Assembly (NCBI GenBank): GCA_000002445.1
Contig: AE017150.2
Span: forward strand, 64,001-128,000
DNA: 64,000 nt
Source of the DNA: Trypanosoma brucei
Taxonomy: Eukaryota
Direction: 5' to 3'
Part shown: one piece after another, positions 10,101 to 58,679 of the stretch
How the letters are laid out: each line of letters begins with the position of its first letter
Numbering within the stretch: position 1 is the stretch's first letter
The notes under the pieces: model-generated
The model's input: only the letters and a program-made list of their open reading frames with translations
Database searches by the model: none
Told to the model about the DNA's origin: nothing
Translations under genes and position numbers: made by a program

Positions 10101-10129
10101 GCACCTTGGTGAGATCACTTTCACTCATT

Positions 10130-22240: not shown

Positions 22241-22880
22241 CTCTCCCATGACACCTACTGGAAATACAACTCAGAGGAGTTTTAGTTCAGGCATGTTTCC
22301 AATACGCCCTCTCCACCACGGATGGCGAAGAAGCAAAAAGTACTATAGCATTTTTGTTCCTTTTATCATTGGCCTATAGATTCCTATCTCTACACAGATG
22401 GAAAATTTAGATTGTATAAATGAAAAGAAGATGTGAAGAGTTAGTGTAATATAATCCAATCCTATAGTTAGTAACAGCACAAATGAAAACAAAACGTTAC
22501 AATGTTTTCTTACGTCCGTCGATAACATTATTTCTGTCTTCATCTGTGCCCCTTAAGATTACGATGTGGCTTAACTCCAGTTACGCGTTAGCCGATAAAA
22601 TACTACTTTCGCTATTCCTTAGTCGTCTTCATTTCCACTTCCCTTCCCTCACCTCCGGCACTCAAGTGAATTATCACGTCCCTTTCCTTGCAGCAGCTGC
22701 GGAAGCTCATTACTGGTGGACAAACAACACACTTGGAAAGGCGCAACGGGGCACTTCAAGTTGTGATCATAAACCAAACCAGGTACAAAAACGAACCCGC
22801 TCCCCCTAATGGTTGGTTCCCTCCTCTTTAAGCATTTGTCACTCTTAACAGCAACGCCGTGCACTGCTAAAAAAAAACAA

Positions 22881-25463
22881 TTACGCGTCTTCACCTCCTT
22901 CCACGTCGTCCATTGCTACGTCACCTCGCCCCTCCACAACCTCTTCACGAGCGCGCCGCCTTCCCGCCAGTCCCATCAATGCTGGTGCATCTCGCATGCC
23001 AGATTCTCGGCGATATGCCTGAATTAATTCCGCTTGCATCGTTTCCTTGAGTGTCACTTGGAATTGGTCGATGGATTCCCAAAATGTTTGCGGTCCCAGA
23101 GGACCTCCGTCCTCACCTCTATCTCTATCGGGGGGTCCTCCGCAAAGTTGCCTGTGGGTTATCGTGCCACCGTTAACCGAATTAATGTATATCATTTCCC
23201 AAGCCATGTTACCCGAAAACGTGTTCCAGTCGGAAAAATAACTTGCTATGTTTTCTCGGAACTTCTGCACCTTATCCGTAGTGGTGGGGTGCCTCTCCGA
23301 CTTGGTTACTTGTAAAAGCACAGCTATATTTGGAGTGGTCGGTGGCGCTGTTCCGTCACGGTTTCTCCTGAGCCGCCCCTCAACGAAAAAAAAGCCATCC
23401 ACCACGGGTTCATTGCCTGTGGCAGGGAGGTAGAGAACCATGTGTTCACAGCGTTCAATTGGTCGCTGTTGGGCCGCAGGTAAGGCCTTCTGCCCAATGA
23501 GTCTCAACTGCTGAGGAGCCATGTCGTTCAGTATGCTTCGACGGTCAGCTATTTCTCTGCCTCGTCGCAGGTATTTCAAGTTGTTTGCGATAACTTTAAA
23601 AACTCGAGGGAAAAGAAGCGAAAGCAACGCAAGCCTTTCAAAAGCGTTGGCCCCGACACTCTCGTCTGACATTATAATCTCCTTTGACGTCATCTCCACA
23701 ATAAGAATGCCAAATAATGTGCAAATCAACATATTCCAAATGTTGACAGAAAGCGATCTGCAACGATATGATTCGACATTGACAGTCCCAGAGCTTACCC
23801 GCACTATCTTCACCAATTTGTGCGTTACCTTATCATTTTGCCAGCCCTTAGATTTACTAATAATCTTATCATATTTCTTTCCGTTATCGCTATCGAGCTG
23901 CCTAGCTTCTTTACGCACACTTTCCAGTCGTTCGTCATAGTCAGGGGCTGAGAAAACAAAACGAGGCAGTGGACCAACCATGTCAATGCGCTCTTCCACA
24001 ATTTTCCACTCGCTTTCAAGCTCCTCCTTTAACTGCTGCCTCGTTTTGTCGCGCGGCACCTCCTCCGAAAGCACACACAGCTTTTTCCATGCCACAAATG
24101 CCTTCATGTCACGCACATCATCGCAGTTTATAATAATTCGGCGGCCTCCCGTGTCCTTTGCCCACTCCTCGTAATGTGCCGTATCCGGGGAAGTGAGAAC
24201 AGTTATACCCCAACTCAAATGGCACAGCTCATCAGGCGGTGTAAGTAAGCGCTTACCGATGTCAACAATGATGTGCCCTTTTTTTTTCTTGGATACTAAC
24301 GCAGCTATTGCGTCAACGGCATCTTCCGGGACTTTATACCTCTCAACCCTCCCCTCTTCTCCGGGTTTCTTGTTATATATTAAGTAAGCGATTTTACCCA
24401 CGAAATATGCAACAACATCAAGCATTCCATCATTGAAGTGAAGCAATGAATGAAGCAAAAATGATCCAACTCCATACGACTTTCCAATACCAGGTGTACC
24501 AATAACAATATGTATCGGTGTTCTCCGAGCTGTCTTTTCCACCCACCATGTTTGCAGCCCTCGTTGGATTATATACCACACGCGCATAATTTCACGACGG
24601 ATGTATACATGTTTAAAATTGTTCTTGCGTATATTAACGTCCCTCGATGCAAACCTGTCGTATGGCCAACCCTTCTCCGAAGTGAGAACAAAAATCTCCA
24701 AACCATTGGGTCTCTCCGGCACTCGTGCATCAAGATTCGCAGGATCAGGAGTTATATCCACCTCCGCTTCGGTCCATATGCGCTGTGGTTTTCCATTAAA
24801 CACTTTCATTCCAAGTGGCTCTCTACGATAACCCGACATTACATAACTCCATTTCGCATCATAAATGGAATCATACACTCCTTTAATTTCGACAGCACTA
24901 GCAGCTGTTTGGGCAGCTCGTTCCAATGCTACATCGAGTGCATCATTCAACATGTTAGTGACAATAATCCAAAGCCGCCCTCCATCTCTCTGTCCACGAA
25001 TATTCACCTGTAACCCGGCCTTTACTACCTCATCTGCTTGTTGCCAGCGCTGAAGATTCAATATTCCCTCTCTGAACAACAGGGGGTAAGCAGTAGCAAA
25101 AACTTTGTACACTTGATACTCTGTTGTCGCGAATATTCGATTGAGCGCATTAACGTCATTAATATACTCTTCGCATCGTTGTACAAAGGCAAACATTGAT
25201 GCTCTCAGGAGACGTTGATCCAAGTCGATATCATCGAGTAAATTACGCCTCAAATAATCATTTACACTCACATTTTCAGGATGAGCCCGACCATTCAGCA
25301 AAACTGCTTCAATGCAGCTGAAAAGTCTCCATTGTGGTTGGTTATTATTCTCCACTCGTTGCTGGACTGCTGGAGGTTCCGCATCGTTACGCGCAGCCTC
25401 CTCACGCTCTCGTCTCCTTCCCTCAATGTCACCCCTTCCTTCAATAGGAACCTGTTGATTCAT
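22881..25463 (-). CDS. RHS: Retrotransposon hot spot (RHS) protein, type-B. Intact.
   Basis: 860-aa ORF. Close to 13151..15724 but has internal patches matching other paralogs. Contains a homopolymer run encoding 'SKKKKGHIIVD' at about 24270-24300. Confidence 0.9.
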   Translation of the reverse strand: MNQQVPIEGRGDIEGRRREREEAARNDAEPPAVQQRVENNNQPQWRLFSCIEAVLLNGRAHPENVSVNDYLRRNLLDDIDLDQRLLRASMFAFVQRCEEYINDVNALNRIFATTEYQVYKVFATAYPLLFREGILNLQRWQQADEVVKAGLQVNIRGQRDGGRLWIIVTNMLNDALDVALERAAQTAASAVEIKGVYDSIYDAKWSYVMSGYRREPLGMKVFNGKPQRIWTEAEVDITPDPANLDARVPERPNGLEIFVLTSEKGWPYDRFASRDVNIRKNNFKHVYIRREIMRVWYIIQRGLQTWWVEKTARRTPIHIVIGTPGIGKSYGVGSFLLHSLLHFNDGMLDVVAYFVGKIAYLIYNKKPGEEGRVERYKVPEDAVDAIAALVSKKKKGHIIVDIGKRLLTPPDELCHLSWGITVLTSPDTAHYEEWAKDTGGRRIIINCDDVRDMKAFVAWKKLCVLSEEVPRDKTRQQLKEELESEWKIVEERIDMVGPLPRFVFSAPDYDERLESVRKEARQLDSDNGKKYDKIISKSKGWQNDKVTHKLVKIVRVSSGTVNVESYRCRSLSVNIWNMLICTLFGILIVEMTSKEIIMSDESVGANAFERLALLSLLFPRVFKVIANNLKYLRRGREIADRRSILNDMAPQQLRLIGQKALPAAQQRPIERCEHMVLYLPATGNEPVVDGFFFVEGRLRRNRDGTAPPTTPNIAVLLQVTKSERHPTTTDKVQKFRENIASYFSDWNTFSGNMAWEMIYINSVNGGTITHRQLCGGPPDRDRGEDGGPLGPQTFWESIDQFQVTLKETMQAELIQAYRRESGMRDAPALMGLAGRRRAREEVVEGRGDVAMDDVEGGEDA

Positions 25464-26770
25464 TTCACTCTCCGAATAATAATCCTAACTGAGTGTGTTG
25501 TGTTATTTCCTTTCTTTGTAATATAAATTAAGAAAAGAATTAAGATGAGGGAATTTAAAATGGATACACTTATAAACCAAATCAAATATACAATTAATGA
25601 ATATTAGGAATTAATATGGCAGATGGAAACTATTTATTTAAATTAGGATTCAATACAAATCTTATCATGTGTTGGGGCGTCACGGCAACTTAAGCACAAA
25701 TAAGGTATGACAGTATGAATAAACATTTCTCTTGGGATGAAAAACTCAAACAACAATTCCCAGTTACTGCACACCATCATTTCAGAAAAAATATATATAC
25801 TTAGATATATTTATGTATGGAAAAGCAAAAAAAATAAATAAATGTGGCATTACCACGAAAAATGGGAAACAATAGTTTTAATGATAAATCATGCAAAACG
25901 TAGAAAACTCGGTTGCATACAGAAAAGTGCCTTACTTACCTTACAAAATTAAAAATATACCAAAAGTAAAAATAAATATAAAACATTATCTTCACAAATC
26001 AAACCAGACACGTATTAAGCAAGAGAAAATAATTCACATAATCTCATACATATGTTATGATGGGCATTGCATGCAGTACAATTTAAAGGAAGTGTAACTC
26101 ATATAACATTTTCAAAAAAAAAAGTAATGAATGGTTGTTTGCTACCATCAATTACATTTCCAATGCCTAATTACACTTTTATATGCATGAAGGAAGTTAC
26201 AGATGATAACTTTGACATGCTCGAGAATCCATAACACAAAGCGACAGCTGCATGCAAATAAAAAAATATAAATATAAATAACATCCGAATTCATTTACTG
26301 ACAGATGAGTGCAATTCATTCACCCAAACTTCATAGCTGTAAACATAAACTTGCTTCTGCCAAAAGGAAAAAATCCCGCATAAATATTGAGTATCTGAAA
26401 ATGATAGCAACGGGTTTCCATTTTTGAAATATATGCATAAACTACATGAGGTATATGAAGCCATATTGGTGAAGTGTCATTACGCATGTTGCAATTTACT
26501 ATCAGAAGTGTATGCCTTATTTTATTTCTTGTGTTACTGTAACTCATGAGTATCATTCATTATTCTTTACAATACAACTGTAAGTCATTTTGCATTTTTA
26601 CATATTTCCTTATTCTCTCATACTGGAAGTATTCCACATATGAGATTCCTCAATATCGTTCAAAAAATAAAAATAATTTTATTTACTTCTGCATTCAGTT
26701 TCTCGTGTAGCAGTGTGTACACTAATCATCCATAAAGTTTTTAATTTGCCAAATACATCATTACGAAACT
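25464..26770. repeat. Type-B 5'-flank plus a partial upstream spacer module. It ends where the type-A 3'-flank begins.
   Basis: Colinear with 15725-17040. Confidence 0.7.
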
Positions 26771-27627
26771 ATTTTCCACAAATAAACAAACAAATAAACA
26801 ACCAAACACTTTTAAATGTTGTTGTGAAACGAAAATTGAATCACGGAAAATTGTGGGGCGCACACGTAATGGGCACCATGAATGCCTCTTTGGATATTCC
26901 TCAATGGCTTTTCACCAGCATCATCAACTTACTTTTTGTGTAAAAAAAAACAAAAAAGAAAAAAAGAAAAAAGAAATTTAAAAAGAAAACAAAAAAGAAA
27001 TAAAGGTACAAATGCATTAATAAACCCAACTCCTCAGCAGGAAATCAAGAACAGGAAGCCACGAAAAGCGTATGGCACATATGATTTTCACCTCTCAGTT
27101 ACTTAAGGTGGATCGCATGATTTACCCACCTTCTAAAAACACACCCTCCGAGAGGCCCGATTAAAAGAAAAAAAAACGCTATGACGGTTGAAAAGACGTT
27201 TTTCATAAACCTTCACTTTATACGTGAGGATGCATGAATAAACAATGATAACGATGAGAATGCTAACGGAAACAATGACGAACCGTGAGGATCATAGAAA
27301 AAAAAACACATACTTTTACATTAAGGAAACTTAATAAATAACAAAATATAAATATTCCCTACACAGAGGTATAGGGAGTGTTCGTCAACTTCGTAATGCT
27401 AATCAAAAAGCCTTCAAATGTATCGATCATTCGTGCAGTCAATCAAATAAGAAGTAACATGTACTACACGCACAAAAGCACACTTATAAAGCCTACAAAC
27501 CCACTTGCCCCCTTTTAGAGAATACCACTCTCTAGTCAGTGATAGGAGAGGTGATATTAAAAGTATTCCCTTTATAATTATTTCTTGTTTTTCAATTCGT
27601 TGCAACATAACATGCAAAGGTGTTGCA
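26771..27627. repeat. Type-A RHS 3'-flank module, copy 2. Its A-rich tract is expanded at 26941-27000.
   Basis: Near-identical to 1926-2765 apart from poly-A/(AAAAG)n expansion. The hairpin aaggtgg...ccacctt is conserved at 27106-27134. Confidence 0.7.
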
Positions 27628-30083
27628 TCAGGCAGCGGGGCCACCAGCAATAGCGTTTGGTTCATCCTGGGTGATCTCCTTAACAATATTCCCTTCCATC
27701 TTCACTTGAAACTGGCTGATTTTATTCCACAACTTTGTAGTATAATCGCCTCTGCCCCCAACTGGTTCGCACTTCTGCCTCACATCGATTGGCTTGCTGT
27801 CACTGTACTGTATGTAAATCAGCTCCCATTTCAAGTTTCTTGCGAGCTTATCCCATTCACCAAACAATTGTTTCATTGCCTTGATAAACTTATCTACCTT
27901 CTCTCGTGTCGTGTGATGCGTTGGTGCCACTGTCGGCTGGAGCAGAACAATTGTTGTTGCGGTGATCGCTCTTCCTTCTCTATCAACAGCTGGCTCAGTT
28001 ACAAAGAAAAAGGCGTCCACAACGGGGAAATTTCCCTGTACAGGTCGGTAAAGGCACCCAACCTTGATGTCTTGGCCTGTCGTTTCGGGGTAAATATGAC
28101 GAAGTGAAGTTGGAACACGTCCCACGGCATTACCACTTGCCAGAGCGGATACATTTGAATCCATTTCTTCTCCAACGCGAGGGAGATACCGCAGGTGCGT
28201 CACAATCGTCTGCACAACATTTCCCATCGTGAAGGCATATATGCCCACATTTTCAAATTCATCAGCGGCCTGCTCTTTTTTCCCACGAAAACCCTTTCGA
28301 AGGTAATTGTCTCGCATACATGCTGTGTCCGCCCACACTCTCAATTTCTGCTCAATATCAATGGAAACAGCTCTGTTTCTGCATTCTTCTCCATTCTCAG
28401 TTACAACCCGGACCAACTTAGCCAACCTGTATGTAGTCCCGTCCTCGCGCCATTGAACTCGACTATTCAGCACCTTCATGTAGTGTTCAGCATCGCCTCT
28501 ACTGATCTCCTCCAGTGCCCCATTTATTTCTCTAACGCGGCCCTTGTAGCGTTTTTCACCTTCCAGTACTTGGCGGGCCAGTGGGCCCACCTTCTTAATC
28601 CATCCCAATGTTTTCTGCCATTCATTCTCAAGGTTTATGATGTGAGCTTCGGTGATTTTACTTTCGTCCAACTTCGACAGCCGCCTTCACGCAACCGCAG
28701 CCTTCAGTTCCACCTCTTCATAGCAATTGATGCAAAAGCGCTCGCAAGCCCGTGGCCGCTTCCAGCGTCTGTAGTTATTTGGATCTGGAGATGTCAACAC
28801 AATTACGGGCCACGTTTCCGGCAATTTTGTCGGTATGGGTTCATCTCTCTCTTTCGCAAAGTCGTATATAATGTAACCAAGACCTTCTTCATCAGCCAAG
28901 TCATTGACAGCATCCAATCCATCTACTTCTTTTTCATAAAATACAACCTTTCTCGGATGATCATTTGTCGCCCTGAAGAAAATATATGCCCTACCCTTCA
29001 CAAAATAAGCGATATTCCGCAACAGCTCCGAATCGTAATGCAGCAACCTTTGGAGCAGAAACGAGCCAACACCAAATGATTTCCCAATACCTGGAGTGCC
29101 AACGAGGACGCAAGGTATTTGTTTTTTATTCACGCCTGGCCCTAACCACAAATCCAGCCTCTGCTTCACAAGATACCACACTCTCATTACCTCTCGACGA
29201 ATGTACACATCCCCGTCAAACACATGGACCTTTGGCTTTTCCTCACCCTCTTGAATTGCTCTTCGCGGAATGCGGAAACGATTATACGGCCAACCCTTCT
29301 GCGAGGTGAGCACAGCAATCTCTAAATTACCACGTCGAGGCAGTGGGTCGCACAAATCGTAAGGCGTGTGACTGACATTCACCTCCTCTTCTGTCCACAA
29401 CTCGGGCTCGCCGTCACTATTACCCACCACCTTCATGCCAAGAGGTAAGTCATTGTGACCCGACTCCACATAACCCCACGTCGCATTGTATATGGATTCA
29501 TATACTCCTTTCAGTTCGACACCATCAGCTCTTTGAGCAGCTCGCTTTTCCGCTTCCTTGAGTGCATTATTCAACATGTTAGTGACAATAATCCAAGTCT
29601 GCTCTCCATTTCTCAGTCCACGAATATTCACCTGTAACCTGGCCTTTACTTCCTCATTTGCTTGTTTCCAGCGCACGAGATTCAATATTCCCTCATTCTC
29701 ATAAAAACCATAGACGCTGACAAAACGTTTGTACACTTTATACGGTATTGTCGCGAATATTCGATTGAGCGCATTAACGTCATTAATATACTCTTCACAT
29801 CGTTGTAAACCCCAGATATTGATACATTATTTTCTTCGTTCACATTGTATCTTGTGCCAAAATTAAGCTTCAAAAAATCATTCAACATCACATTTTGAGG
29901 ATGTGGCAGACCATTCAGCAAAACTGCTTCAATGCAGCTGAAAAGTCTCCATTGTGGTTGGTTATTATTCTCCACTCGTTGCTGCACTGCTGGAGGTTCC
30001 GCATCGTTACGCGCAGCCTCCTCACGCTCTCGTCTCCTTCCCTCAATGTCACCCCTTCCTTCAATAGGAACCTGTTGATTCAT
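27628..30083 (-). pseudogene. RHS: Chimeric RHS pseudogene: type-B 5' flank and N-terminus joined to a type-A body and C-terminus. It is disrupted by a nonsense codon and an N-terminal indel.
   Basis: The ORF is split into 29682..30083, 28687..29736 and 27628..28671. At 28684-28686 the minus-strand codon is TGA, where gene 2766..5222 has TGG at the homologous position ('...AAVAW' with W at the stop position). The N-terminal ORF loses frame around 29800-29830 relative to 13151..15724 and 22881..25463. The P-loop 'VLVGTPGIGKSFGVGSFLL' is still encoded. Confidence 0.85.
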
Positions 30084-30930
30084 TTCACTCTCCGAATAAT
30101 AATCCTAACTGAGTGTGTTGTGTTATTTCCTTTCTTTGTAATATAAATTAAGAAAAGAATTAAGATGAGGGAATTTAAAATGGATACACTTATAAACCAA
30201 ATCAAATATACAATTAATGAATATTAGGAATTAATATGGCAGATGGAAACTATTTATTTAAATTAGGATTCAATACAAATCTTATCATGTGTTGGGGCGT
30301 CACGGCAACTTAAGCACAAATAAGGTATGACAGTATTAATAAACATTTCTGTTGAGAGGAAAACTCAAACAACAATTCCCGGTTACTTCACACCATGATT
30401 TCAAAAACAATAATATACTTACACATATATTTATGTATTGAAAAGCAAAACAAATAAATAAATGTGGCATTGCCATGAAAAAAAAAACAGTTTCACACGT
30501 GTGGTCCAAAAGCTGCATCAGCCAATACAATATCTTGACAACTTGTCACGCAGTCTTGCCTCAAGAAGAAAATAAAACATTCATCACTTGTTTACTTAAT
30601 TGATAAATGAGATCCCATGCTGTGTTAACTCACGTCTCCATTCAAAAAGTTGACTCAACGTTGTGACGAGGCAGTGACAAAAAACAATCCAAATGCAATT
30701 CCAAATTTCTTCATATTACGTTTTCAGTTTTATTACACATTTCCCCAACCATTCCAAGTACTAACAGGAATAATTTGGTTCTATAATAATGCATGTGTTT
30801 TCTACAGCTCTTTCATTTTGTTATGATCCGCACAAAAATTATATATGTGGTTGTTGATTCGTCCTGTCAATCAAAGTAATATAATAATTAATTTTCCCCT
30901 TTTCTTCATTTTTTCTATTAGCACATGTGC
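30084..30930. repeat. Truncated spacer: the type-B 5'-flank joined directly to the tail of the distal spacer module. About 4 kb of spacer is missing.
   Basis: The junction is near 30480, where '...tggcattgccatgaaaaaaaaaacagtttcacacgtgtggtcc' jumps to sequence that sits about 3.5 kb further along in full units (cf. 9640). Confidence 0.65.
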
Positions 30931-33431
30931 ACCTTGGTGAGATCACTTTCACTCATTTGCACTGATTGGTCAACACTATTTAGTTCGTTATTCAACACAC
31001 TCCCTTACATGTCCTCTTCTCACCATTTATAACCCACACGAGCAGCATCAAATATAAATTGTGAAGAGGTATGAGATCACAAGGAGCTCGCTCTCATTGA
31101 GAAGGTTGGATGCGTCATATATATATAATCATGTAATCCCTTTCCATTTCAACAATACGCAAACCTCAACTGCGGAATCGACTTTGAATGAGTTGACCTC
31201 GTCAGCATGAAACGGGGCCCGCCAAGTGGCATGAACATTAATCTTATCAGTAAACATGTGTTTGAGGTGTTGGTAATAAATGGGGTCAAATAAAACATAA
31301 GTGCGTATCATCTCCCCCGTTATGCCCGAGTGGAAAATATACATCATCTCCTTGAATATAATTGTATCCATGTTGTATCAATTCCTCATTCAGCTCTTCA
31401 TCCTTATCGGTACCCAAAGGCATTGCCATCGCCTAACTTTTCCGTGAATGCACTCACGCCTTTAAGCTAACGAGTTCCAGCAACTTTCCATCTGTCATAC
31501 GGCTCGGGAATCCATGAGAATTTATGATCATATCTGTGCAAATGCCTTTACTCATTGAAGGGCATGTTAACACACCATCAGTGATGAGATCCACTACTCC
31601 CTCCAGCCCGTGCCGTGAGGAAAACTTATTTCAGACCTCGGGACCGCGAACTTCTCTCGTAGCAACTTTAACTTTATTGTTATACATTCATCGATATATC
31701 CGAGTCACTGGAAGGTGAGAGATGACCACATTTGGTTCACAACAGCAGGCTGAGGGTATTTATTATATTCAAGAAAATTAGGTCTTGGTTCCTTGAAAGG
31801 CACGGGAGTTTATTTGTTTACCAAAATATCAAACTGACGAATAACCGCACCTTTACTACTGGCAATACCATCAATATTAAAGGCATTGTGTCTCGCAACA
31901 TTTCAATCTGTTGGAAGAATTATATCATACATACTCACCGTTGGGAAGTCTTTCCAGTTCCATCTCATGCTTACAAAAAACAACACGCCACCCATAGCCA
32001 CAATTGAGCGAACTGCGGTTGTGTACACCTTTGCGTCTTCAATATTGTAACCTCTATAGCTCATAATGCATACCATTGTATTAATTCCCGCATCTAATAT
32101 TTTGTAGTTGCTTAGGTTCATAGCCTTCGTCCAGCAAAGGGATAGTTGAGAGTAAGCACTCAACATAAGTACTGTGTCCATTTCTAATGTACTGAATATA
32201 CGCAATGGTTCCAACAGTTTGCTTGCCCATGGCTGACTGTAATGTGTTTCGTGCAAATTGATTGTGATGTGGAAAGGAGAATAATGCTAGCGACAACTCC
32301 AAGTGAGTCTCGTGTACTGCTCAATGTCTTTGTGGTGAACTGCTATAAGATAGTCATTCGCTTCATCATATAAGTCAATGAATTCCACAACAAACCTTCA
32401 GCTAAAATATCGTTAATCGAGCACTTGCCTGGACTCAAGTTATCCAGGTGTTAAGAAATTACGGCGTGTTTCCCATCGCTAACGAAAACATACAACCTCA
32501 CGATCCTTCCGCCAACACAAACAATTTGAACAATATTCTGGCGGTCATTTATCGCAATAGAAACATGCTGATGCAAGCGGCCTGTGTTCCTCAGGGTTCG
32601 TAATACATCCCAACACAAACGGCTCATGTATCGATAAACGCACATCAGCACTTCATTGAGGAAAACTGTGTAGTATTTAAGAAATTCGTTAAGGCTGATA
32701 TAATCTATTTCCTCCACTCCAATATTGCACGCATCCGCATGTAAACAAACAAATTATCCATGTTGAGTGTTACCTGACTAAGAATAGCAAAATTATTAAC
32801 CAAACAGCAACAACTTTTACCCTCTGGGGTATCGCAAGGAGGGATATACACCATTCCCCATTGACTTGAATAGAGAAATAATGATCCGCACATGTGGGTC
32901 AATAGACGAGGTCATGACCACTCCACTGCTGCCGTTACATATGATCACTGCATGGTTTTCGTATCAATGTTGATGATGATATGGGATTTGCTGCTGGAGG
33001 CAACCAACAACATAAGTTTAAGGTTCCCACGTGTGGAGAGAGGCCTAACTGCCAACCCTCAACCAGGATAACAGAAGTGATTATAAGGAAAGAGAAGACA
33101 ACATATCATAGCATGTTTGCACACCGACAAATAATTGAAGAAAGAGAGTAAAAGAGAGAGAGAGAGAGAGGAAAATGGACACAATCACGTCACCAGCTGC
33201 GTGTCTGCGAAGAACACCATCAAGAGCTGCTCCATAACTGCAACCATAACTAACATGTATAATATAATTATAACAGCTCGTATATGAAACAGCAAATCCA
33301 GTAATTGCTTCTAATGTTTGCATATTTCGCTCCGTCACAATCTCTCTCCCATGACACCTACTGGAAATACAACTCAGAGGAGTTTTAGTTGAGGCATGTT
33401 TCCAATACGCTCTCTCTACCACGGATGGCAA
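30930..33431 (-). pseudogene. RPB2-family C-terminal pseudogene fragment, copy 3.
   Basis: ORFs 31129..31371, 31903..32256, 32081..32302, 32451..32717, 32705..32902 and 33081..33431 carry the same motif series ([65 protein letters not shown]). Confidence 0.6.
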
Positions 33432-34072
33432 AGAAGCAAAAAGTACTATTACATTTTTGTTCCTTTTATCATTGGCCTATAGATCCCTATCTCTACACTG
33501 ATGGAAAATTTAGATTGTATAAATGAAAAGAAGATGTGAAGAGTTAGCGTAGTATAATTCAATCCTTTAGTTGGTAATAGCACAAATGAAAACAAAACGT
33601 TATAATGTTTTCTTACGTCCGTCGATAACATTATATCTGTCTTTCTTTGTGACCCTTAAGATTACGATGTGGCTTAACTCCAGTTACACGTTAGCCTATA
33701 AAATACTGCACTCCTTCTACTTCCTCCACTACTTTGTCGTCTCGCCACGTTTCCTTGGAACCTTCATTACATTCATACCATGGCGTCCTTGCTGCACCCA
33801 AAAGAAAAAGCAGCCACACCTCCTTGCCCGCTGTGAGGTTACTGAATATACTTCGGACGTCACTGATTATGTGCACCTCTGTGTTACTCTTGTTTTGACT
33901 GCAGTCCGCTGAACTTGGTTTCCTTTCAAACTGCCACACCCCAAGCGCTGCCCACTGCTGAGGAGATTGAACCGCATATATTCACCTCCTTCCACAGCGT
34001 CCGTTGCGTGTCAAACAACAGCGACTGGCCTTACTCCAGCTATTGGGTTCACCTTCGCTTTGCTTTCATCGC

Positions 34073-36586
34073 TCACCTCCCCTGTGCCTTTTCTGCCTTC
34101 TGAAAGGCAATCATCAGCTGTGCATTCATTTCGTCCCTCAACGTTACCTGGAATTGTTCAATCGTTTCCCAAAATGTTTGCAGTTGTTCCGCCTGCCTGG
34201 CAGGGATAACTTCGTCGTCGTTCGCCTCACATTTTTGCCAATTGGTAATTACGGCGCCATCCACTGAGTTTATGTATATCATTTCCCAAGCCATGTTACC
34301 CGAAAACGTGTTCCAGTCGGAAAAATAACTTGCTATGTTTTCTCGGAATTTCTTCACCTTCGCCGTGGTGGTGGGGTGCCTGTCTAACTTGGTTATTTGT
34401 AAAAGGACAATTGTCTTCGGTTTTGGCGCTTTTTTCGCTTGCCTTCCAGGCGACATCGTGAAGCGCCCCTCAACGAAAAAAAAGCCATCCACCACGGGCT
34501 CGTTGGCAGTAGAGGGAGTGTAGAGCACCATGTATTCACACTTCTCAATTGGTTGCTGGCCGGCCGTTGGTAAGAACTCCGATCCAGTGAGGCACAACTG
34601 CTGAGGAGTCATGCTACTCAGTATACTTTGCTTTCCCCTCAGCTTCTCAGGTGGACGGAGGTGTCTCAAGTTCTTTGCCATCACCTCGAGAACTTGAGGA
34701 TTGACTATCGCAAACAACGCATGGCTTTCAAATGAAATGGAAGCGGCACTTCTGTTTCCCATCATGAGCTGGGACTCTGCTGTTTTTCGCGCAGTAATGC
34801 CAAGCAGCGCCCAAAGTAGCAAGATCCTTATGTGTCCGGACAGCTCTTTGCAGCGATATGAATCTCCGGAAACTCCATTTCCACGTGCACGGACTATCTG
34901 TACCAACTTGTGCGACACCTTTTCAGTTTGCCAGTTCACTGATGACCTAAAAAGATCCTCGTAACCACTTTTATCATTAGCATCGAGGCCTCTTATTTTT
35001 TTTGCCATAGCCTCCATTCGCACGCCGTGCCCCACAGCGTCGTAAACGGCACGAGGCACCGGGCCGGCCACTGCAATACGCTGCTTTACAGTTTCCCATT
35101 CGTCCTTTAGTCTTCCTCTTAACTCTTGTTTCGCCGTGTTGGATACCTTTTCACCTAATGCTACTGATAAATTCTTCCATGCCACAAACGCCTTCATGTC
35201 ACGCACATCATCGCAGTTTATAATAATATGGCGGCTTCCCGTGTCCTTTTCCCACTCCTCATAATGTGCCGTATCGGGGGAAGTGAGGACAGTTATACCC
35301 CAATCCAAATGGCGCAGCTCACCAGGCGGTATAAGTAGTTCGTTACCGATGTCAACAATGATGTGACCTCTTTTTTTCTCGAATACTAACGCAGCTATGG
35401 CGTCAACGGCATCTTCCGGGACTTTATACCTCTCAACCCTTCCCTCTTCTCCGGGTTTCTTGTTATATATTAGGTAAGCGATTTTACCCACGAAATACGC
35501 AATGACATTAAACATTCCATCATGGAAGTGAAGCAGTGAATAAAGCAAAAATGATCCAACACCGTATGATTTACCAATACCAGGTGTACCAATAACAATA
35601 TGTCTCGGTGTTATCCGAGCTGTCCTTTCCACCCACCATGTTTGCAGCCCTCGTTGAATTATATACCACACGCGCATAATTTCACGACGGATATACACAT
35701 GTTTATAAATTTCCTCGCACCTCTCAGTGTCACTTGTTTTAAACCTGTTGTATGGCCAACCTTCCTCCGAAGTGAGAACGAAAATCTCCAAACCATCGGG
35801 TCTCTCCTCAATCTCTGCATCAACATTGGTAGGATCAGGAGTTATATCCACCTCCGCTTCGGTCCAAATGCTCTGTGGTCTTCCATCGAACACTTTCATT
35901 CCAAGTGGCTCTCTACGATAACCCGACATTACATAACTCCATTTCGCATTATAAATGGAATCATATAATCCTTTCAGTTCGACAGCACCACCAGCTGCTA
36001 GGACAGCTCGCTTTTCCGCTCTCTTGGCGGCCGCCAACGCTCCATCCAACCTTCCCCTCGCCATGGGACCAACAAATTCTCTTATTTCCACTGTCCCCTT
36101 CTCCTCCCACTGACTGAGGTAGTAAATTTCCTTTTCATCAAGGTACTCTACCTTCTCAGACAGATCAATAGCTGTCTTCACTGTTTTAAACTCATCAGTG
36201 CCTTGTATATCCTCAAGAATCTCAGCATCAACAATATATCTTCTGGGATTCTTAACAAACAAAAACATGGCCACATTCTCTGTGTTATACGTGTTTGAGA
36301 AGTATTGATTCAAAAGGTCATGCAATTTCATATTACGCAGAACCTCATACCGTTGCAGCAGCGCATCTTCCAGCAGCACATTCCTCACCTTACTATCCAT
36401 CGTCCAGTTGGGCCTCTCTTCAGTTCTCTGCCGTATTTGTGGAGGCTGAGCAGCAGCAGCAGCAGCAGCAGCAGGAGGCGGTACATTTTCATCTCGCGGT
36501 CTCCTCATGGGCCCTTCAATATTACCTGCCACTTGTTGGTTTTCATTATTTCCTTGTGGAGCTGCGGGACTATTTGCTCTTGACAT
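34073..36586 (-). CDS. RHS: Retrotransposon hot spot (RHS) protein, type-C N-terminus (MSRANSPAAPQGNNENQQVA..., poly-Ala). Intact.
   Basis: 837-aa ORF. P-loop 'IVIGTPGIGKSYGVGSFLLYSLLHF'. Conserved RHS blocks. Its unique 3' flank diverges from the other units after 'ccagttacacgttagcc'. Confidence 0.9.
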   Translation of the reverse strand: MSRANSPAAPQGNNENQQVAGNIEGPMRRPRDENVPPPAAAAAAAAQPPQIRQRTEERPNWTMDSKVRNVLLEDALLQRYEVLRNMKLHDLLNQYFSNTYNTENVAMFLFVKNPRRYIVDAEILEDIQGTDEFKTVKTAIDLSEKVEYLDEKEIYYLSQWEEKGTVEIREFVGPMARGRLDGALAAAKRAEKRAVLAAGGAVELKGLYDSIYNAKWSYVMSGYRREPLGMKVFDGRPQSIWTEAEVDITPDPTNVDAEIEERPDGLEIFVLTSEEGWPYNRFKTSDTERCEEIYKHVYIRREIMRVWYIIQRGLQTWWVERTARITPRHIVIGTPGIGKSYGVGSFLLYSLLHFHDGMFNVIAYFVGKIAYLIYNKKPGEEGRVERYKVPEDAVDAIAALVFEKKRGHIIVDIGNELLIPPGELRHLDWGITVLTSPDTAHYEEWEKDTGSRHIIINCDDVRDMKAFVAWKNLSVALGEKVSNTAKQELRGRLKDEWETVKQRIAVAGPVPRAVYDAVGHGVRMEAMAKKIRGLDANDKSGYEDLFRSSVNWQTEKVSHKLVQIVRARGNGVSGDSYRCKELSGHIRILLLWALLGITARKTAESQLMMGNRSAASISFESHALFAIVNPQVLEVMAKNLRHLRPPEKLRGKQSILSSMTPQQLCLTGSEFLPTAGQQPIEKCEYMVLYTPSTANEPVVDGFFFVEGRFTMSPGRQAKKAPKPKTIVLLQITKLDRHPTTTAKVKKFRENIASYFSDWNTFSGNMAWEMIYINSVDGAVITNWQKCEANDDEVIPARQAEQLQTFWETIEQFQVTLRDEMNAQLMIAFQKAEKAQGR
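36451..36474. repeat. (CAG)8 / (CTG)8 trinucleotide repeat encoding the poly-Ala tract of RHS 34073..36586. The paralog has (CAG)5 at 47152-47166.
   Basis: Direct count in the sequence. The protein reads PPPAAAAAAAAQPP versus PPPAAAAQPP in 44732..47269. Confidence 0.85.
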
Positions 36587-39500: not shown

Positions 39501-41560
39501 CTCAGTATGTGTGTATGTCTGTGTATCTGTGTGTGTAGAAATGATGAAATGTAATTGTAACAAATCAGGCACAACACAAACAAAAAATATGAATTATATT
39601 ATTCTCTAAAAAGTAGAAGAATAAAAATCAAGAAATATTACGCAACTTTTCTCACAAGTAATTTTGTTTCTGTATATATATATATACATAACACGACAGC
39701 TGACAACATTAAACTCTCAATTCCATAATATCTGACACCTGAAGTGATAATTAGCAGCGGATGCCTCTATCAAAAAACAACAGAAATAACAACATCAAAG
39801 CATGTTTTGAAAGCTTAAATAAACTTCCTCATGGATAAACCATTTGTACAAAGTTTGAGTGCCAAGTAGGAGGAACAAAGAAAAATAAAAAAAGAAGAAT
39901 TAAATGGTAAAAGAATTGCGTGTGATATAACTAAAGGATTTGTTAGGCACTACACTCATTTAACTCCAGTTTCATAAAAATACTGCAAGGCATAATATTT
40001 ACTGCTTTACCGGTTATGTGCCTCCAGCAAGCAATAATAAATACTTCGAGTATTATTCAATTTCTGATGCTATGAAGTGTGTAATAAATTAGTGCGGGAG
40101 TAAAATATTCAAATGTTGGTGTTCAATTCAGATTATAAACTCTGCACTATGAATGTCTCTCGATGTTTATAATTTGAGAGAGCAAAAGTGACGGCGCTAC
40201 TATTTATTTCTTCCAGTTCATGAATACATACACATATATAAATATATTTATACATATATAATCAGATGTGACACGCAAAAGCGTTTAAACATCAGGCATG
40301 AACATCTTTCCATCCATTTAAAGTAAGACTATACAATAAGGTAAGTTTAGGATGAAGTGAAGGTATCATAATGTTAATATCTTCCTTCAAGCGGAGGATT
40401 CAATTCAAATAGGCGTACTTCACAAACAATAGTAAAATAACTGAGAAAACTTATATCACTTAATCGTTATTTCCTTCAATTCTTATTTTGAATCGCTCTG
40501 TACCGTCACACCTTCAATAAAGTATATAGTGACACATTTCACACATCCTCCCTAAGCCATCTCTCATAGTCATTAGCTCTCAACAGCAATAATAACAAAT
40601 AATGAATAGTTTAGTTCTTACCTTCCCTTTTTTACTACCGACAAGAAAGATATACGAAATAATTATCATACTGAATAAACAGTAGGCGTTCCTCATTATC
40701 CTACACAAAATATGAATTGAAACGATAATTTAGTAACGAAGCGGAAGTGTCTGAAAGCGTCTTTAACTCATCTCCTGTGCGGGGCGAAGAGGGTTGTGTT
40801 GTGTGGACTTTCTAAAAATTTCACTCCCTTGCAGACAGCTGCGTAAATAAACGGGGAGTACAGGTGTGTTTATAAAAAGATAACCGTACAAAATAATACT
40901 CTGCACTCCTAAGTCCAAAACAACCATTCGTAATGCAGGCTTTCAAAATACACGACATCATCTCAACAAATTGTAATTTTTTTTTGTATAATGTCCTCCA
41001 GAAGACGGAACAACAGATGACACAGTTAAATAACACATGACAAACAAGGAATATAACCGCACATCCTCAGCAGTAAATGTTTCAGTTTCTCCTTTAAAAA
41101 AAAAAAAAAAGAAAAATAAAACAGTTTCACACGTGTGGTCCAAAAGCTGCATCAGCCAATACAATATCTTGACAGCTTGTCACGCAGTATTGCCTCAAGA
41201 AGAAAATAAAACATTCATCTCTGCTTTCCGTTAATTGATAAATGAGATCCCATGCTGTGTTAACTCCCGTCTCCATTCAAATAGTTGACTCAACGTTATG
41301 ACGAGGCAGTGACCAAAAACAATCCAAATGCAATTCTAAATTTCTTCATATTACGTTTTCAGTTTTATTACACATTTCCCCAACCATTCCGAGTACTAAC
41401 AGGAATAATTTGGTTCTATAATAATGCATGTGTTTTCTACAACCCTTTCATTTTGTTATGATCCGCACAAAAATTATATATGTGGTTGTTGATTCGTCCT
41501 GTCAATCAAAGTAATATAATAATTAATTTTCCCCTTTTCTTCATTTTTTCTATTAGCACA
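36587..41560. repeat. Full-length inter-RHS AT-rich spacer (type-C 5'-flank, upstream module, distal spacer module).
   Basis: Colinear with 5223-10100. Confidence 0.75.
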
Positions 41561-43890
41561 TGTGCACCTTGGTGAGATCACTTTCACTCATTTGCACTGA
41601 TTGGTCAACACTATTTAGTTCGTTATTCAACACACTCCCTTACATGTCCTCTTCTCACCATTTATAACCCACACGAGCAGCATCAAATATAAATTGTGAA
41701 GAGGTATGAGATCACAAGGAGCTCGCTCTCATTGAGAAGGTTGGATGCGTCATATATATATAATCATGTAATCCCTTTCCATTTCAACAATACGCAAACC
41801 TCAACTGCGGAATCGACTTTGAATGAGTTGACCTCGTCAGCATGAAACGGGGCCCGCCAAGTGGCATGAACATTAATCTTATCAGTAAACATGTGTTTGA
41901 GGTGTTGGTAATAAATGGGGTCAAATAAAACATAAGTGCGTATCATCTCCCCCGTTATGCCCGAGTGGAAAATATACATCATCTCCTTGAATATAATTGT
42001 ATCCATGTTGTATCAATTCCTCATTCAGCTCTTCATCCTTATCGGTACCCAAAGGCATTGCCATCGCCTAACTTTTCCGTGAATGCACTCACGCCTTTAA
42101 GCTAACGAGTTCCAGCAACTTTCCATCTGTCATACGGCTCGGGAATCCATGAGAATTTATGATCATATCTGTGCAAATGCCTTTACTCATTGAAGGGCAT
42201 GTTAACACACCATCAGTGATGAGATCCACTACTCCCTCCAGCCCGTGCCGTGAGGAAAACTTATTTCAGACCTCGGGACCGCGAACTTCTCTCGTAGCAA
42301 CTTTAACTTTATTGTTATACATTCATCGATATATCCGAGTCACTGGAAGGTGAGAGATGACCACATTTGGTTCACAACAGCAGGCTGAGGGTATTTATTA
42401 TATTCAAGAAAATTAGGTCTTGGTTTCATGGAAGGCACGGGAGTGTATTTGTTTACAAAAATATCAAACTGACAAACAGCCGCACCTTTACTACTGGCAA
42501 TACCATCACTACTAAAGGCATTGTGTCTCGCAACATTTCAATCTGTTGGAAGAATTATATCATACATACTCACCGTTGGGAAGTCTTTCCAGTTCCATCT
42601 CATGCTTACAAAAAACAACACGCCACCCATAGCCACAATTGAGCGAACTGCGGTTGTGTACACCTTTGAGTCTTCAATATTGTAACCTCTATAGCTCATA
42701 ATGCATACCATCGTATTAATTCCTGCGCCTAATATTTTGTAGTTGCTTAGGTTCATAGCCTTCGTCCAGCAAAGGGATCGTTGAGAGTAAGCACTCAACA
42801 TAAGTACTGTGCCCATTTCTAATGTACTGAATATACGCAATGGTTCCAACAGCTTGCTTGCCCATGGCTGACTGTAATGTGTTTCGTGCAAATTGATTGT
42901 GATGTGTAAAGGAGAATAATGCTAGCGGCAACTCCAAGTGAGTCTCGTGTACTGCTCAATGTCTCTATGGTGAACTGCTAAAAGACAGACATTCGCTTCG
43001 TCATATAAGTCAATGAATTCCACAACAAACCTTCAGCTAAAATATCGTTAATCGAGCACTTGCCTGAACTCAAGTTATCCAGGTGTTGAGAAATTACAGC
43101 GTGTTTCCCATCGCGAACAAAAACATACAACCTCACGATCCTTCTGCCAACACAAACAATTTGAACACTCTTCTGACGGTCATTTATCGCAATTGAAACG
43201 TAAGGATGCAAGCGGCCTGTGTTCCTCAGGGTTCGTAATACATCCCGACACAAACGGCTCATGTATCGATAAACGCACATCAGCACTTCATTGAGGAAAA
43301 CTGTGTAGTATTTAAGAAATTCGTTAAGGCTGATATAATCTATTTCCTCCACTCCAATATTGTACGCATCCGCATGTAAACAAATTATCCATGTCGAGTG
43401 TTACCTGACTAAGAATAGCAAAATTATTAACCAAACAGCAACAACTTTCACCCTCTGGGGTATCGCAAAGAGGGATATACACCATTCCCCATTGACTTGA
43501 ATAGAGACATAATGATCCGCACATGTGGGTCAATAGACGAGGCCATGGTCACTCCACTGCTGCCGTTACATATGATCACTGCATGATTTTCGTATCAATG
43601 TTGATGATGATGTGGGATTTGCTGCTGGAGGCAACCAACAACACAAGTTTAAGGTTCCCACGTGTGGAGAGAGGCCCAACTGCCAACCCTCAACCAGGAT
43701 AACAGAAGTGATTATAAGGAAAGAGAAGACAACATATCATAGCATGTTTGCACACCGACAAATAATTGAAGAAAGAAAGAGAGGGAGAGAGAGAGAGAGA
43801 GGAAAATGGACACAATCACGTCACCAGCTGCGTGTCTGCGAAGAACACCATCAAGAGCTACTCCATAACTCTAATCATAACTAACATGTA
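41560..43890 (-). pseudogene. RPB2-family C-terminal pseudogene fragment, copy 4.
   Basis: ORFs 41764..42006, 42538..42891, 42716..42937, 42978..43352 and 43324..43533 carry the same motif series. Confidence 0.6.
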
Positions 43891-44731
43891 TAATATAATT
43901 ATAACAGCTCGTATATAAAACAGCACATCCAGTAACTGCTTCTAATGTTTGCATATTTCACTCCGTCACAATCTCTCTCCCATGACACCTACTGGAAATA
44001 CAACTCAGAGGGGCTATATTTGAGGCATGTTTCCAATACGCTCTCTCCACCACGGATGGCAAAGAAGCAAAAAGTACTATTACATTTTTGTTCCTTTTAT
44101 CATTGGCCTATAGATCCCTATCTCTACACGGATGGAAAATTTAGACTGTATAAATGAAAAGAAGATGTGAAGAGTTAGTGTAGTATAATCCAATCCTATA
44201 GTTTGTAATAGCACAAATGAAAACAAAACGTCACAATGTTTTCTTACGTCCGTCGATAACATTATTTCTGTCTTTCTCTGTGCCCCTTAAGATTACGATG
44301 TGGCTTAACTCCAGTTACGCGGTAGCCGATAAAATACTACTTTTACTATTCCTTAGTCGTCTTCATTTCCACTTCCCTTCCCTCACCTCCGGCACTCAAG
44401 TGAATTACCACGTCCCTTTCCTGCACTAACCGCCGCATTCGACTGCTTGTTGAAAAGAATAAGATGATTACTACAGCCGCTATTTGCTGAATATTACTCC
44501 CTTGCAGCGCATCTTGTCATCCTAAGCATTAAGACAAAGCCACTTACCCTGTTTTGGCAGTTAGGACTGCTGGCCTCCCTATGATACGATAACTCAATTT
44601 TACATTAAATGAAAAAACGCCGACTAGCCCCACATTAGCACCGTACACTGTTGACTGCTTGCGTTCACCATAACATACCAGGCCGGATATTTTTACCCAG
44701 CTTCCACCACACCTAATGCTATGAAATCGTC

Positions 44732-47269
44732 TCACCCTCCTTGCGCTCCCGCTTGCTCGTTGCGTGGCTGCGGCGCAGGCTCCATGGCCAGAAGTGGAGC
44801 ATCCCGATACCAACATTCATCTCTATATGCTCGCATTAGCTGCCCCTGCATTTCTTCCCTTAACGTTACTTGGTATTGAGCCATGTTTCTCCACATATCT
44901 GCCGCTTCGGCGGGGTCGTCGCCATCACAAAGTTGCCTGATGGTTATCGTGCCACCGTTAACCGAATTAATGTATATCATCTCCCAAACCATGTCGCGGG
45001 AAAACGCACCCCAATCAGAAAAATATCTTGCCATGTTTTCTCGGAACTTCTGCACCTTATCCGTAGTGGTGGGGTGCCTGTCCGACTTGGTTACTTGTAA
45101 AAGCACAGCTATATTTGGAGTGGTCGGTGGCGCTGCTCCGTCAGGGGCTCTCCTGAGCCGCCCCTCAACGAAAAAAAAGCCATCCACCACGGGTTCATTG
45201 CCTGTGGCAGGGCGGTAGAGAACCATGTATTCACAATTATCAATTGGTCGCTGGTGGGCCGCAGGTAAGGCCTTCTGCCCAGTGAGTTTCAACTGCTGAG
45301 GAGCCATGTCGTTCAGTATGCTTCGACGGTCAGCTATTTCTCCGCCTCGTCGCAGGTATTTCAAGTTGTCTGCGATAACTTTAAAAACTCGAGGAAAAAG
45401 AAGCGAAAGCAACGCCCTTGATTCAAACACGTTGGCTGCGGCACTCTCGTCTGACATCGTAACTTGACGGATAGCCATTTTCTCCACATCAATGGCAAGC
45501 AGTTTGAAAAATATAGCATTCCCAATGCAAACCGAAAGTGGCCGGCAGCGGTATTCATCGACGCTCTCTCCGGCATCTCGCACACGGACGATTTTCACTA
45601 ACCTGTGCGTTACCTTATCATTTCGCCAATCGGCAATTTTCCCCATTATGTCCTCGTAGTGACTTTTGTTGTCACCATTGATGGACGTTATCATCTTTTT
45701 TGCCTGAGACACACGTTTTGTGTACCCCGCGCTGTTGTAAACGCAACGAGGCACTGGCCCAACCACATTAATACGGCTCTTTATTGTTTCCCACTCATTT
45801 TTAAGTTCTTCTACAATCCTCGCCTGAGCTTCTTCATCAAGTGCCGCATAGCCTGATGCTACAGACAGCTTAGTCCATGCCACAAATGCCTTCATGTCAC
45901 GCACATCATCACAGTTTATAATAATTCCTACGTCTCTCTTGTCTTTTGACCAGTGATGAAAATGGGCCTCATCCGGAGAAGTGAGGAGAGTTACACCCCA
46001 AGCGTGAACCGGCAGACCATCGGGTGGCGTCTGCGCATTCTTGCATATGTCAACAATGATGTGCCCTTTTTTTTTCTTGAATACTAACGCAGCTATGACC
46101 CTAACAGCAGCTTTCACGTCTTCATATTGCTCAACCTTCCCCCCTTCTCCGGGTTTCTTGTTATATATTAAATAGGCTATTTTACCCACGAAATATGCAA
46201 CAACATCAAGCATTCCATCATTGAAGTGAAGCAATGAATGAAGCAAAAATGATCCAACACCATATGATTTACCAATACCAGGTGTACCAATAACAATATG
46301 TCTCGGTGTTATCTCAGCTTTTTCCACCCACCTTCCTTGCAGCCCTCGTTGGATTATATACCACACGCGCATAATTTCACGACGGATATATACATGCTTA
46401 AAATTTTCCAAGCATATCTCAGCGTCATCCAATGCAAACCCGTTGTATGGCCAACCCTTCTCCGAAGTGAGAACAAAAATCTCCAAACCATCAGGCCTCT
46501 CCTCAATCTCTGCATCAACATTCGCAGGGTCAGGAGTTATATCCACCTCCGCTTCGGTCCATATGCACTGTGGTTTTCCATCAAACACTTTCATGCCAAG
46601 TGGCTCTTCATTATAACCCGACATTACATAACTCCATTTCGCATTATATATGGATTCATACACTCCTTCAAGTTCGACAGCACCACCAGCTGTTTGGGCA
46701 GCTCGCTTTTCCGCTCTCTTGGCGACCTCCAGTGCTCCATCCAACCTTCCCCTCGCCATGGGACCAACAAATTCTCTTATTTCCCCTCTTCCCTTCTCCT
46801 CCCACTGACTGAGGTAGTAAATTTCTTTTTCGTCAAGGTACCTTGCTTTCCGCTTCATTTCAGAGAATTGGTTATATAATTCTTTATATTCCTCAAACTG
46901 ATAAAGCCGCCGTATCCTTCCTAGAATCCCGGCATCCAAAATATAATCCTCCGGGCTCTGGACAAACACATCCATGGCCACATTCTCTGTGTCATACGTG
47001 TTAAAAAACTTTTTCAGCAAAAAGTCATGCAGTGTCATATCCCTCAAACCCTCATAGCGTTGCAGCAATACATCTTCAATAGAACTGTTCATTGTCCAAT
47101 TGGGCCCCTCTTCAGTTCTCTGCCGTATTTGTGGAGGCTGAGCAGCAGCAGCAGCAGGAGGCGGTACATTTTCATCCCGTGGCCTCCTCATGGCTGCTTC
47201 AATATTATCTGCCACTTGTTGATTTTCATTATTTCCTTGTGGAGCTGCGGGACTATTTGCTCTTGACAT
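44732..47269 (-). CDS. RHS: Retrotransposon hot spot (RHS) protein, type-C N-terminus. Intact.
   Basis: 845-aa ORF. P-loop 'IVIGTPGIGKSYGVGSFLLHSLLHF'. The C-terminal region matches the RHS blocks (VVDGFFFVEGR, HPTTTDKVQKF, VWEMIYINSV). Its unique 3' flank is at 44400-44731. Confidence 0.9.
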   Translation of the reverse strand: MSRANSPAAPQGNNENQQVADNIEAAMRRPRDENVPPPAAAAAQPPQIRQRTEEGPNWTMNSSIEDVLLQRYEGLRDMTLHDFLLKKFFNTYDTENVAMDVFVQSPEDYILDAGILGRIRRLYQFEEYKELYNQFSEMKRKARYLDEKEIYYLSQWEEKGRGEIREFVGPMARGRLDGALEVAKRAEKRAAQTAGGAVELEGVYESIYNAKWSYVMSGYNEEPLGMKVFDGKPQCIWTEAEVDITPDPANVDAEIEERPDGLEIFVLTSEKGWPYNGFALDDAEICLENFKHVYIRREIMRVWYIIQRGLQGRWVEKAEITPRHIVIGTPGIGKSYGVGSFLLHSLLHFNDGMLDVVAYFVGKIAYLIYNKKPGEGGKVEQYEDVKAAVRVIAALVFKKKKGHIIVDICKNAQTPPDGLPVHAWGVTLLTSPDEAHFHHWSKDKRDVGIIINCDDVRDMKAFVAWTKLSVASGYAALDEEAQARIVEELKNEWETIKSRINVVGPVPRCVYNSAGYTKRVSQAKKMITSINGDNKSHYEDIMGKIADWRNDKVTHRLVKIVRVRDAGESVDEYRCRPLSVCIGNAIFFKLLAIDVEKMAIRQVTMSDESAAANVFESRALLSLLFPRVFKVIADNLKYLRRGGEIADRRSILNDMAPQQLKLTGQKALPAAHQRPIDNCEYMVLYRPATGNEPVVDGFFFVEGRLRRAPDGAAPPTTPNIAVLLQVTKSDRHPTTTDKVQKFRENMARYFSDWGAFSRDMVWEMIYINSVNGGTITIRQLCDGDDPAEAADMWRNMAQYQVTLREEMQGQLMRAYRDECWYRDAPLLAMEPAPQPRNEQAGAQGG

Positions 47270-56200: not shown

Positions 56201-56244
56201 ACAAGATAACTTTCTTGATGAATTTCATTCATGATCGCACGCGT
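50231..56244. other. ORF-poor, GC-richer, non-repetitive region lying between the leftward-transcribed RHS array and the rightward-oriented genes. The leading interpretation is a divergent strand-switch region that may include degenerate element debris.
   Basis: No ORF longer than 209 aa in any frame. No recognisable protein motifs in the longest ORFs (50630..51082, 51135..51764). The base composition differs clearly from the AT-rich spacers. Flanking gene orientation is minus to the left and plus to the right. Confidence 0.4.

Positions 56245-58599: not shown

Positions 58600-58679
<80 letters not shown>

Follow-up and report, generated by a model that had tools for sequence, protein, structure and literature searches.

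Mosaic retrotransposon hot spot paralogs on Trypanosoma brucei chromosome 2 include a short tract that points to gene conversion

The 64,000-nt stretch of DNA analysed here (contig AE017150.2, positions 64,001 to 128,000 of the forward strand; hereafter the window) is an array of retrotransposon hot spot (RHS) genes from chromosome 2 of Trypanosoma brucei brucei TREU927. We conclude that the RHS paralogs of this array are very probably mosaics, produced by repeated non-allelic homologous recombination, and that a short patch in the third gene, identical to the fourth, is in all likelihood a gene-conversion tract, putatively a non-reciprocal one. The long open reading frames (ORFs) at 2.7-47.3 kb all lie on the minus strand and recur approximately every 10 kb. 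Where an earlier note on this DNA counted six genes, the array comprises five intact RHS genes (g1-g5) and one chimeric pseudogene (g6), all on the minus strand. The intact genes are as follows.

2766..5222, minus strand: g1, intact RHS gene; 818 aa from the first ATG; exact match to AAL14353.1 ('RHS2a')
13151..15724, minus strand: g2, intact RHS gene of type B; 857 aa; XP_951483.1; sister of g3
22881..25463, minus strand: g3, intact RHS gene with a g2-type ('type B') backbone; 860 aa; exact match to XP_951484.1; putative recipient of the patch
34073..36586, minus strand: g4, intact RHS gene of 'type C'; 837 aa; exact match to XP_951485.1; putative donor type of the patch
44732..47269, minus strand: g5, intact RHS gene; 845 aa; XP_951486.1

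The three peptides on which the earlier note had based its case were all found in the genes to which it assigned them. The 30-residue peptide KFRENIASYFSDWNTFSGNMAWEMIYINSV is encoded by both g3 (aa 734-763, window 23175-23264) and g4 (aa 746-775, window 34262-34351), with KFRKNMERYFSDWGAFSRNMVWEMIYINSV in g2 (window 13445-13534) and ENMARYFSDWGAFSRDMVWEMIYINSV in g5 (window 44960-45040). The identity claimed between the C-terminal blocks of g3 and g4 extends to the DNA, where it forms a perfect run of 77 nt.

23185..23261, minus strand: putative conversion tract in g3; 77 nt identical to g4; informative core 23196-23255
34272..34348, minus strand: donor-type copy in g4, identical to the g3 tract 23185..23261
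13466-13525, minus strand: unconverted type-B state in g2, the counterpart of the g3 patch core

Within this run, the codon alignment places 15 differences between g3 and g2, synonymous ones included, 14 between g3 and g5, and 13 between g3 and a closely related copy from T. b. gambiense (described below). On both flanks g3 is again of the g2 type, and its identity to g4 is down to ~60-70%, so that a donor-identical segment is bounded on each side by recipient-type sequence, as is characteristic of a gene-conversion tract. The patch has an informative core of 52-60 nt and a maximum size of 77 nt, and its junctions share identity over 6-14 nt at the 5' side and 11 nt at the 3' side. It lies within an island of ~350 nt in which type-B genes and g4 are 77.6-80.8% identical (BLAST), with g2-g4 identity of 67% at alignment columns 2200-2450. 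Over 250 nt of this similarity island, identity runs in two control pairs, g2-g4 and gambiense copy-g4, reached at most 14 nt, and permutation returned p ~5e-5 for g3-g4 against ~0.24 for both controls. Phylogenetic analysis of the patch grouped g3 with g4 (100% bootstrap), whilst elsewhere g2 and g3 grouped together at 98-100%.

Mosaic structure was also detected beyond the patch. A triplet test with g3 as child and g2 and g4 as parents counted 659 g2-type against 86 g4-type informative sites, with the g4-type sites falling in uninterrupted runs of 19, 15, 9 and 7; longest-run and maximum-descent tests both reached the permutation limit (p <= 2e-4). The view that the rest of g3 follows type B is correct for its backbone, which is of g2 type, but g3 departs from it in an N-terminal module at 25083-25304, which is 68-77% identical to g2 and identical to the gambiense copy and H25N7.12, and in two central g4-like tracts. 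With g5 as child and g4 and g2 as parents, maximum descent was 138 (p <= 2e-4). The resemblance of g5 to the type-B patch, reported in the earlier note, covers a block of some 525 nt.

24745..24855, minus strand: central g4-like tract of g3, in agreement with g4 against g2 at 16 informative sites that form two runs
24285..24396, minus strand: central g4-like tract of g3; 22 informative sites; 96% identity to g4 vs 79% to g2
44930..45454, minus strand: type-B block in g5; ~525 nt, 93-98% identical to g2/g3; synonymous divergence (dS) 0.06-0.07

The flanks of the g5 block are only 55-60% identical to g2/g3, with dS of 0.9-1.6. The gene as a whole combines a g4-like N-terminus with a mid-C-terminal region and tail of its own, in which the type-B block is embedded. 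Across six successive segments, dS between g5 and g2 was 2.9, 0.38, 1.5, 0.07, 0 and 0.93, a more than 20-fold change within one pair of genes.

As the earlier note had anticipated, trees of the N-terminal, central and C-terminal thirds of the five window genes were incongruent. The N-terminal third grouped g4 with g5 (79%), the central third g1 with g5 (98%), so that g4 falls in with g2/g3, and the C-terminal third g1 with g4 (86%), so that g5 falls in with g2/g3. Within the N-terminal region, g1 is nearer to g5 at columns 181-420 than g4 is to g5. Little conflict appeared in the trees of thirds that included the gambiense copy, because three of their five taxa are type B; the conflict is visible at finer scale and in the window-only set. 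The pairwise homoplasy index (PHI) was significant in two taxon sets with the standard 100-nt-equivalent window (p ~2e-4). Of the breakpoint tests that had been proposed, a GENECONV-style longest-fragment test was likewise significant at the permutation limit, and this for every pair. For between-type pairs we give it little weight, because the slowly evolving central domain can yield long matching runs without exchange, and regard the triplet tests and the control-pair comparison as more robust.

The direction of the exchange can be judged from relatives. The NTFSGNMAW state of the patch occurs in proteins with a g4-type C-terminus, namely g4 itself and P0008 of chromosome 1, and, among the type-B proteins compared, only in g3 and XP_951479 (= AAL14355.1), a member of the same chromosome 2 array that lies just outside the window. 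The alternative GAFSR state was found in g2, the gambiense copy, H25N7.12, g5, P0062 and RHS4 CAD21774. Because NTFSGNMAW is typical of g4-type C-termini and GAFSR of most of the type-B proteins compared, the patch state appears native to the g4 type, and the type-B gene would be the recipient. The nearest intact upstream neighbour of g3 is g4, which keeps its own state and has not acquired the type-B patch.

A relative age for the event is provided by a locus on chromosome 11 of T. b. gambiense DAL972 (FN554974.1:1083213-1105786), which is collinear with window positions 29060-17804 over 11.3 kb at 95.7% identity (88-100% in 300-nt windows). This collinear segment could be an inter-chromosomal segmental duplication or a matter of assembly placement. 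The RHS gene that it contains is 99-100% identical to g3 over most of the coding sequence and ~99.8% identical to the g3 background. Of 64 substitution sites between the two genes, only 6 are isolated (0.24% of sites); the remainder cluster in groups, each of 2-15 differences over at most 87 nt, and this clustering is significant (p = 2e-4; variance-to-mean ratio 2.8). One of these groups takes in the flagged patch; all 13 sites at which the gambiense copy differs from g3 there are in the g2/g5 state. This pattern indicates that several short exchanges have occurred after the split of g3 from the gambiense copy, a divergence comparable to that of the subspecies, whose mean coding identity is 99.2%. 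Because a copy ~99.8% identical to g3 lacks the patch, the patch event looks young relative to that copy. The earlier note had described conversion between array members as ongoing; conversion is supported by the triplet tests, PHI at the standard window, the trees and dS, whilst 'ongoing' is an extrapolation from the patch-free gambiense copy.

Several points weigh against recent, repeated conversion, and some of them fit an alternative in which the mosaics are real but old. On that view, a small number of unequal crossovers or chimeric duplications shuffled the modules while the array and the subfamilies were forming, and nothing is exchanged now. The type-B block of g5 also occurs in the g5-type gene P0062 and in RHS4 CAD21774, and its dS to g2/g3 is about that between g2 and g3 themselves (0.03-0.05). 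The central g4-like tracts of g3 are common to the gambiense copy; tract 24745..24855 is therefore older than the flagged patch. The patch itself is common to two array members: g3 and XP_951479 are identical throughout the C-terminal region (protein-alignment columns 601-810, a comparison at protein level only), so it may have begun in either gene and reached the other through a larger exchange. When its window was made very wide (100 informative sites, ~600 nt), PHI was not significant (p = 0.11). The actual donor could be the neighbour g4 or a near-identical copy elsewhere, the comparison covering the array of one genome. As the DAL972 assembly was built on a TREU927 template, its repeated RHS regions could be consensus mixtures, which weakens the dating. 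Finally, the sequence itself points neither to a particular initiating event nor to the RAD51 role proposed below.

We nevertheless consider a purely ancient origin unlikely. Recipient sequence flanks the patch on both sides, which rules out a single crossover and leaves conversion or double crossover. The patch is 100% identical to g4, yet missing from the gambiense copy that otherwise nearly equals the g3 background. Moreover, the clustered differences between g3 and that copy point to several short exchanges on the timescale of subspecies divergence.

An assembly or consensus artefact, in which reads from different paralogs were mixed to create false patches, is a natural concern in so repetitive a region, where the 10-kb units are mutually 94-97% identical. 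It is nonetheless very improbable here. A 77-nt patch with 15 changes inside a 94-100% g2-like gene spans far less than a sequencing read; a second array gene, XP_951479, which was annotated separately, has that patch state too; and g1 matches the independently deposited AAL14353.1 exactly. The TREU927 chromosome 2 was assembled from Sanger-sequenced bacterial artificial chromosome clones, which also counts against an artefact.

The synonymous sites of the patch were converted along with the non-synonymous ones. Across columns 2311-2388, a patch segment that slightly exceeds the 77-nt run, dS between g2 and g3 is 0.73 against 0.02-0.055 in the flanks, and between g3 and g4 it is 0.08 against at least 0.64 in the flanks. 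The segment holds six synonymous differences between g2 and g3 and one between g3 and g4, the latter outside the identical run. That convergent or purifying selection held the same peptide in g3 and g4 without DNA exchange is therefore scarcely credible, even though the patch sits in the most conserved island of the C-terminal domain and the YFSDW...WEMIYIN motif is kept across several subfamilies, for the peptide of g2 and of the near-identical gambiense copy is different yet just as intact.

Gene conversion and related exchanges of the kind favoured here could have proceeded as follows. The initial lesion would have been a gap or a break, possibly a double-strand break, in the C-terminal region of g3 or of the type-B gene immediately ancestral to it. 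It would have been repaired from a type-C template (g4 or a near-identical copy) within the ~350-nt island, where the two gene types are only ~70-80% identical. Repair would have overwritten 52-77 nt, with resolution in the 6-14-nt and 11-nt stretches of shared identity. The ~525-nt type-B block of g5, the chimeric g6 and the central tracts in which g3 resembles g4 may be products of larger exchanges. By analogy with the formation of mosaic variant surface glycoprotein (VSG) genes, the enzymology may be RAD51/BRCA2-dependent, mismatch-tolerant, short-tract templated repair. The retroelement hot spot of RHS genes adjoins the P-loop coding region (PMC7563717). The central tract 24285..24396 of g3 lies 66-180 nt downstream of the P-loop (24477-24500) and this hot spot, which in g3 falls near 24460-24480, and breaks at the hot spot might have seeded it.

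In T. brucei, mosaic VSGs form through break-induced templated insertions averaging 41-70 bp and below 300 bp, with junction identities averaging 9-13 bp, tolerance of ~20% donor mismatch and a requirement for RAD51 and BRCA2 (Nature 2026, PMC13233330). The g3 patch resembles these insertions in organism, in size (52-77 nt), in junction identity (6-14 and 11 nt), in a donor mismatch of ~20% or more (20-30% for the RHS genes) and in that the donor may lie anywhere in the genome. The two systems differ in that host antibody selects for VSG mosaics at an expressed telomeric site, whereas RHS proteins, as nuclear factors that associate with RNA polymerase II, are free of immune selection. Dependence on RAD51, BRCA2 and a double-strand break is an experimental result for VSGs and would extend to RHS genes by analogy. 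We tentatively raise the possibility, for which the odds appear somewhat less than even, that mismatch-tolerant short-tract repair of the VSG type acts genome-wide on non-antigen families in T. brucei, with the RHS array as a natural record. If so, hot-spot breaks or replication-transcription conflicts in the array would continually seed exchanges that both diversify RHS genes and rescue them from retroelement insertion.

Mosaicism is expected for the RHS family and has been published for T. cruzi, where RHS genes contain up to three foreign fragments in N-terminal, central and C-terminal positions, identified with RDP4 and attributed to unequal crossing-over, segmental conversion and interlocus gene conversion (Bernardo et al. 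2020, Genes 11:1085, PMC7563717). The protein family and the phenomenon are the same here, whilst the species and subfamily structure differ, and that study did not cover this T. brucei array. In comparison, the present tract is resolved to the nucleotide, and a close patch-free copy permits relative dating. The chromosome 2 cluster belongs to the T. brucei RHS family described earlier (Bringaud et al. 2002, Eukaryot Cell 1:137), g1 being an exact match to the RHS2a entry of that description. As relayed second-hand in PMC7563717, the original description proposed that RHS pseudogenes arise via homologous recombination between variants, and the chimeric g6 matches the proposal in that form. A sub-telomeric location of RHS genes would favour recombination, and 78 of 118 annotated RHS copies (66%) are pseudogenes (Florini et al.).

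We therefore see in the array no new kind of system but a further, well-supported case of a process already known, at a locus that has been well studied. Nucleotide-resolved tracts between intact paralogs help to explain how functional copies are retained and new subfamily combinations arise. They also caution against reading a single gene history into RHS subfamily names that are based on the C-terminus. The practical value is modest, namely additional natural tract lengths for trypanosome homologous recombination.

The identity of the genes was established from deposited entries and Pfam domains. In an exact-sequence look-up, all five intact proteins corresponded to GenBank entries, g2-g5 being XP_951483 to XP_951486 of TREU927 chromosome 2. 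Each of the five contains RHS_N (PF20445) followed by the P-loop RHSP domain (PF07999; E-values 6e-64 to 7e-138, full-length domain coverage), as well as DUF7578, and each carries the ATP/GTP-binding motif GTPGIGKS. Domains, P-loop motif and matches to deposited entries all agree with the kinetoplastid RHS family. The bacterial Rhs sense of the label used in the earlier note was considered and rejected: the five proteins gave no match to the RHS/YD-repeat Pfam family at E <= 0.001, had RHS_N, RHSP and DUF7578 instead, and are eukaryotic. Bacterial Rhs/YD-repeat toxins share the acronym and the idea of variable C-termini only, with no homology. At the N-terminus of g1, the ORF from the first ATG (818 aa) is longer than other TREU927 chromosome 2 proteins of the same 90% cluster (789 aa, ~96% identical), and its first 29 residues (MLHCSHTIIFLIRYF...) appear unlike other RHS N-termini.

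Among the close type-B paralogs, non-synonymous divergence (dN) is similar to dS. Values of dN against dS for g2-g3 were 0.177 vs 0.232 in the N-terminal region, and 0.022 vs 0.021 and 0.043 vs 0.031 in C-terminal segments. This suggests relaxed or diversifying selection, or differences largely imported by conversion and not by point mutation.

Self-comparison resolved the array into head-to-tail units of ~10 kb, in which conserved spacer blocks follow each RHS gene; over 10.5 kb, the g2 and g3 units share 94% identity. A tandem-repeat search of one spacer unit found nothing. The pseudogene and the spacer 'D blocks', four of ~3.2 kb, are located as follows.

~27628..30087, minus strand: g6, chimeric RHS pseudogene with one frameshift and one in-frame stop
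9645-12874, minus strand: D block downstream of g2
19384-22604, minus strand: D block downstream of g3
30477-33707, minus strand: D block downstream of g4
41111-44338, minus strand: D block downstream of g5

In g6, a type-B N-terminus (85-88% identical to g2/g3) is joined at ~29428-29560 to a g1-type (RHS2-type) body (~94% to g1). The arrangement of g6 with g3 was found likewise at the T. b. gambiense chromosome 11 locus.

The D blocks are about equidistant (95.5-97% mutually identical), and their 71 informative sites back all ten possible 2|3 splits of five copies. Exchange therefore reaches non-coding DNA and is not confined to coding sequence. Each D block also holds a degenerate pseudogene of an RNA-polymerase second-largest subunit, with ORF fragments matching Rpb2 domain 4 and Rpb2 domain 6; the top match among solved structures was RPC2 of RNA polymerase III, by a small margin. 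This pseudogene has been duplicated with the RHS unit and also occurs in T. b. gambiense (positions 13923-14665 of the chromosome 11 locus), and no mention of it was found in the literature examined.

Further observations concern the remainder of the window. The cumulative GC skew reverses near 50 kb, at the end of the minus-strand RHS array, which suggests a strand-switch region there. At 56134-57398 on the plus strand, the periplasmic-binding-like domain of a receptor-type adenylate cyclase (PF25495, E = 2e-39) is divided between two adjacent ORFs in different frames, which probably represent a pseudogene or a frameshifted GRESAG4-like gene. A (TH)n run in the translation of the minus-strand ORF 58529-58933, at about 58600-58700, corresponds to an (AC/GT)n microsatellite.

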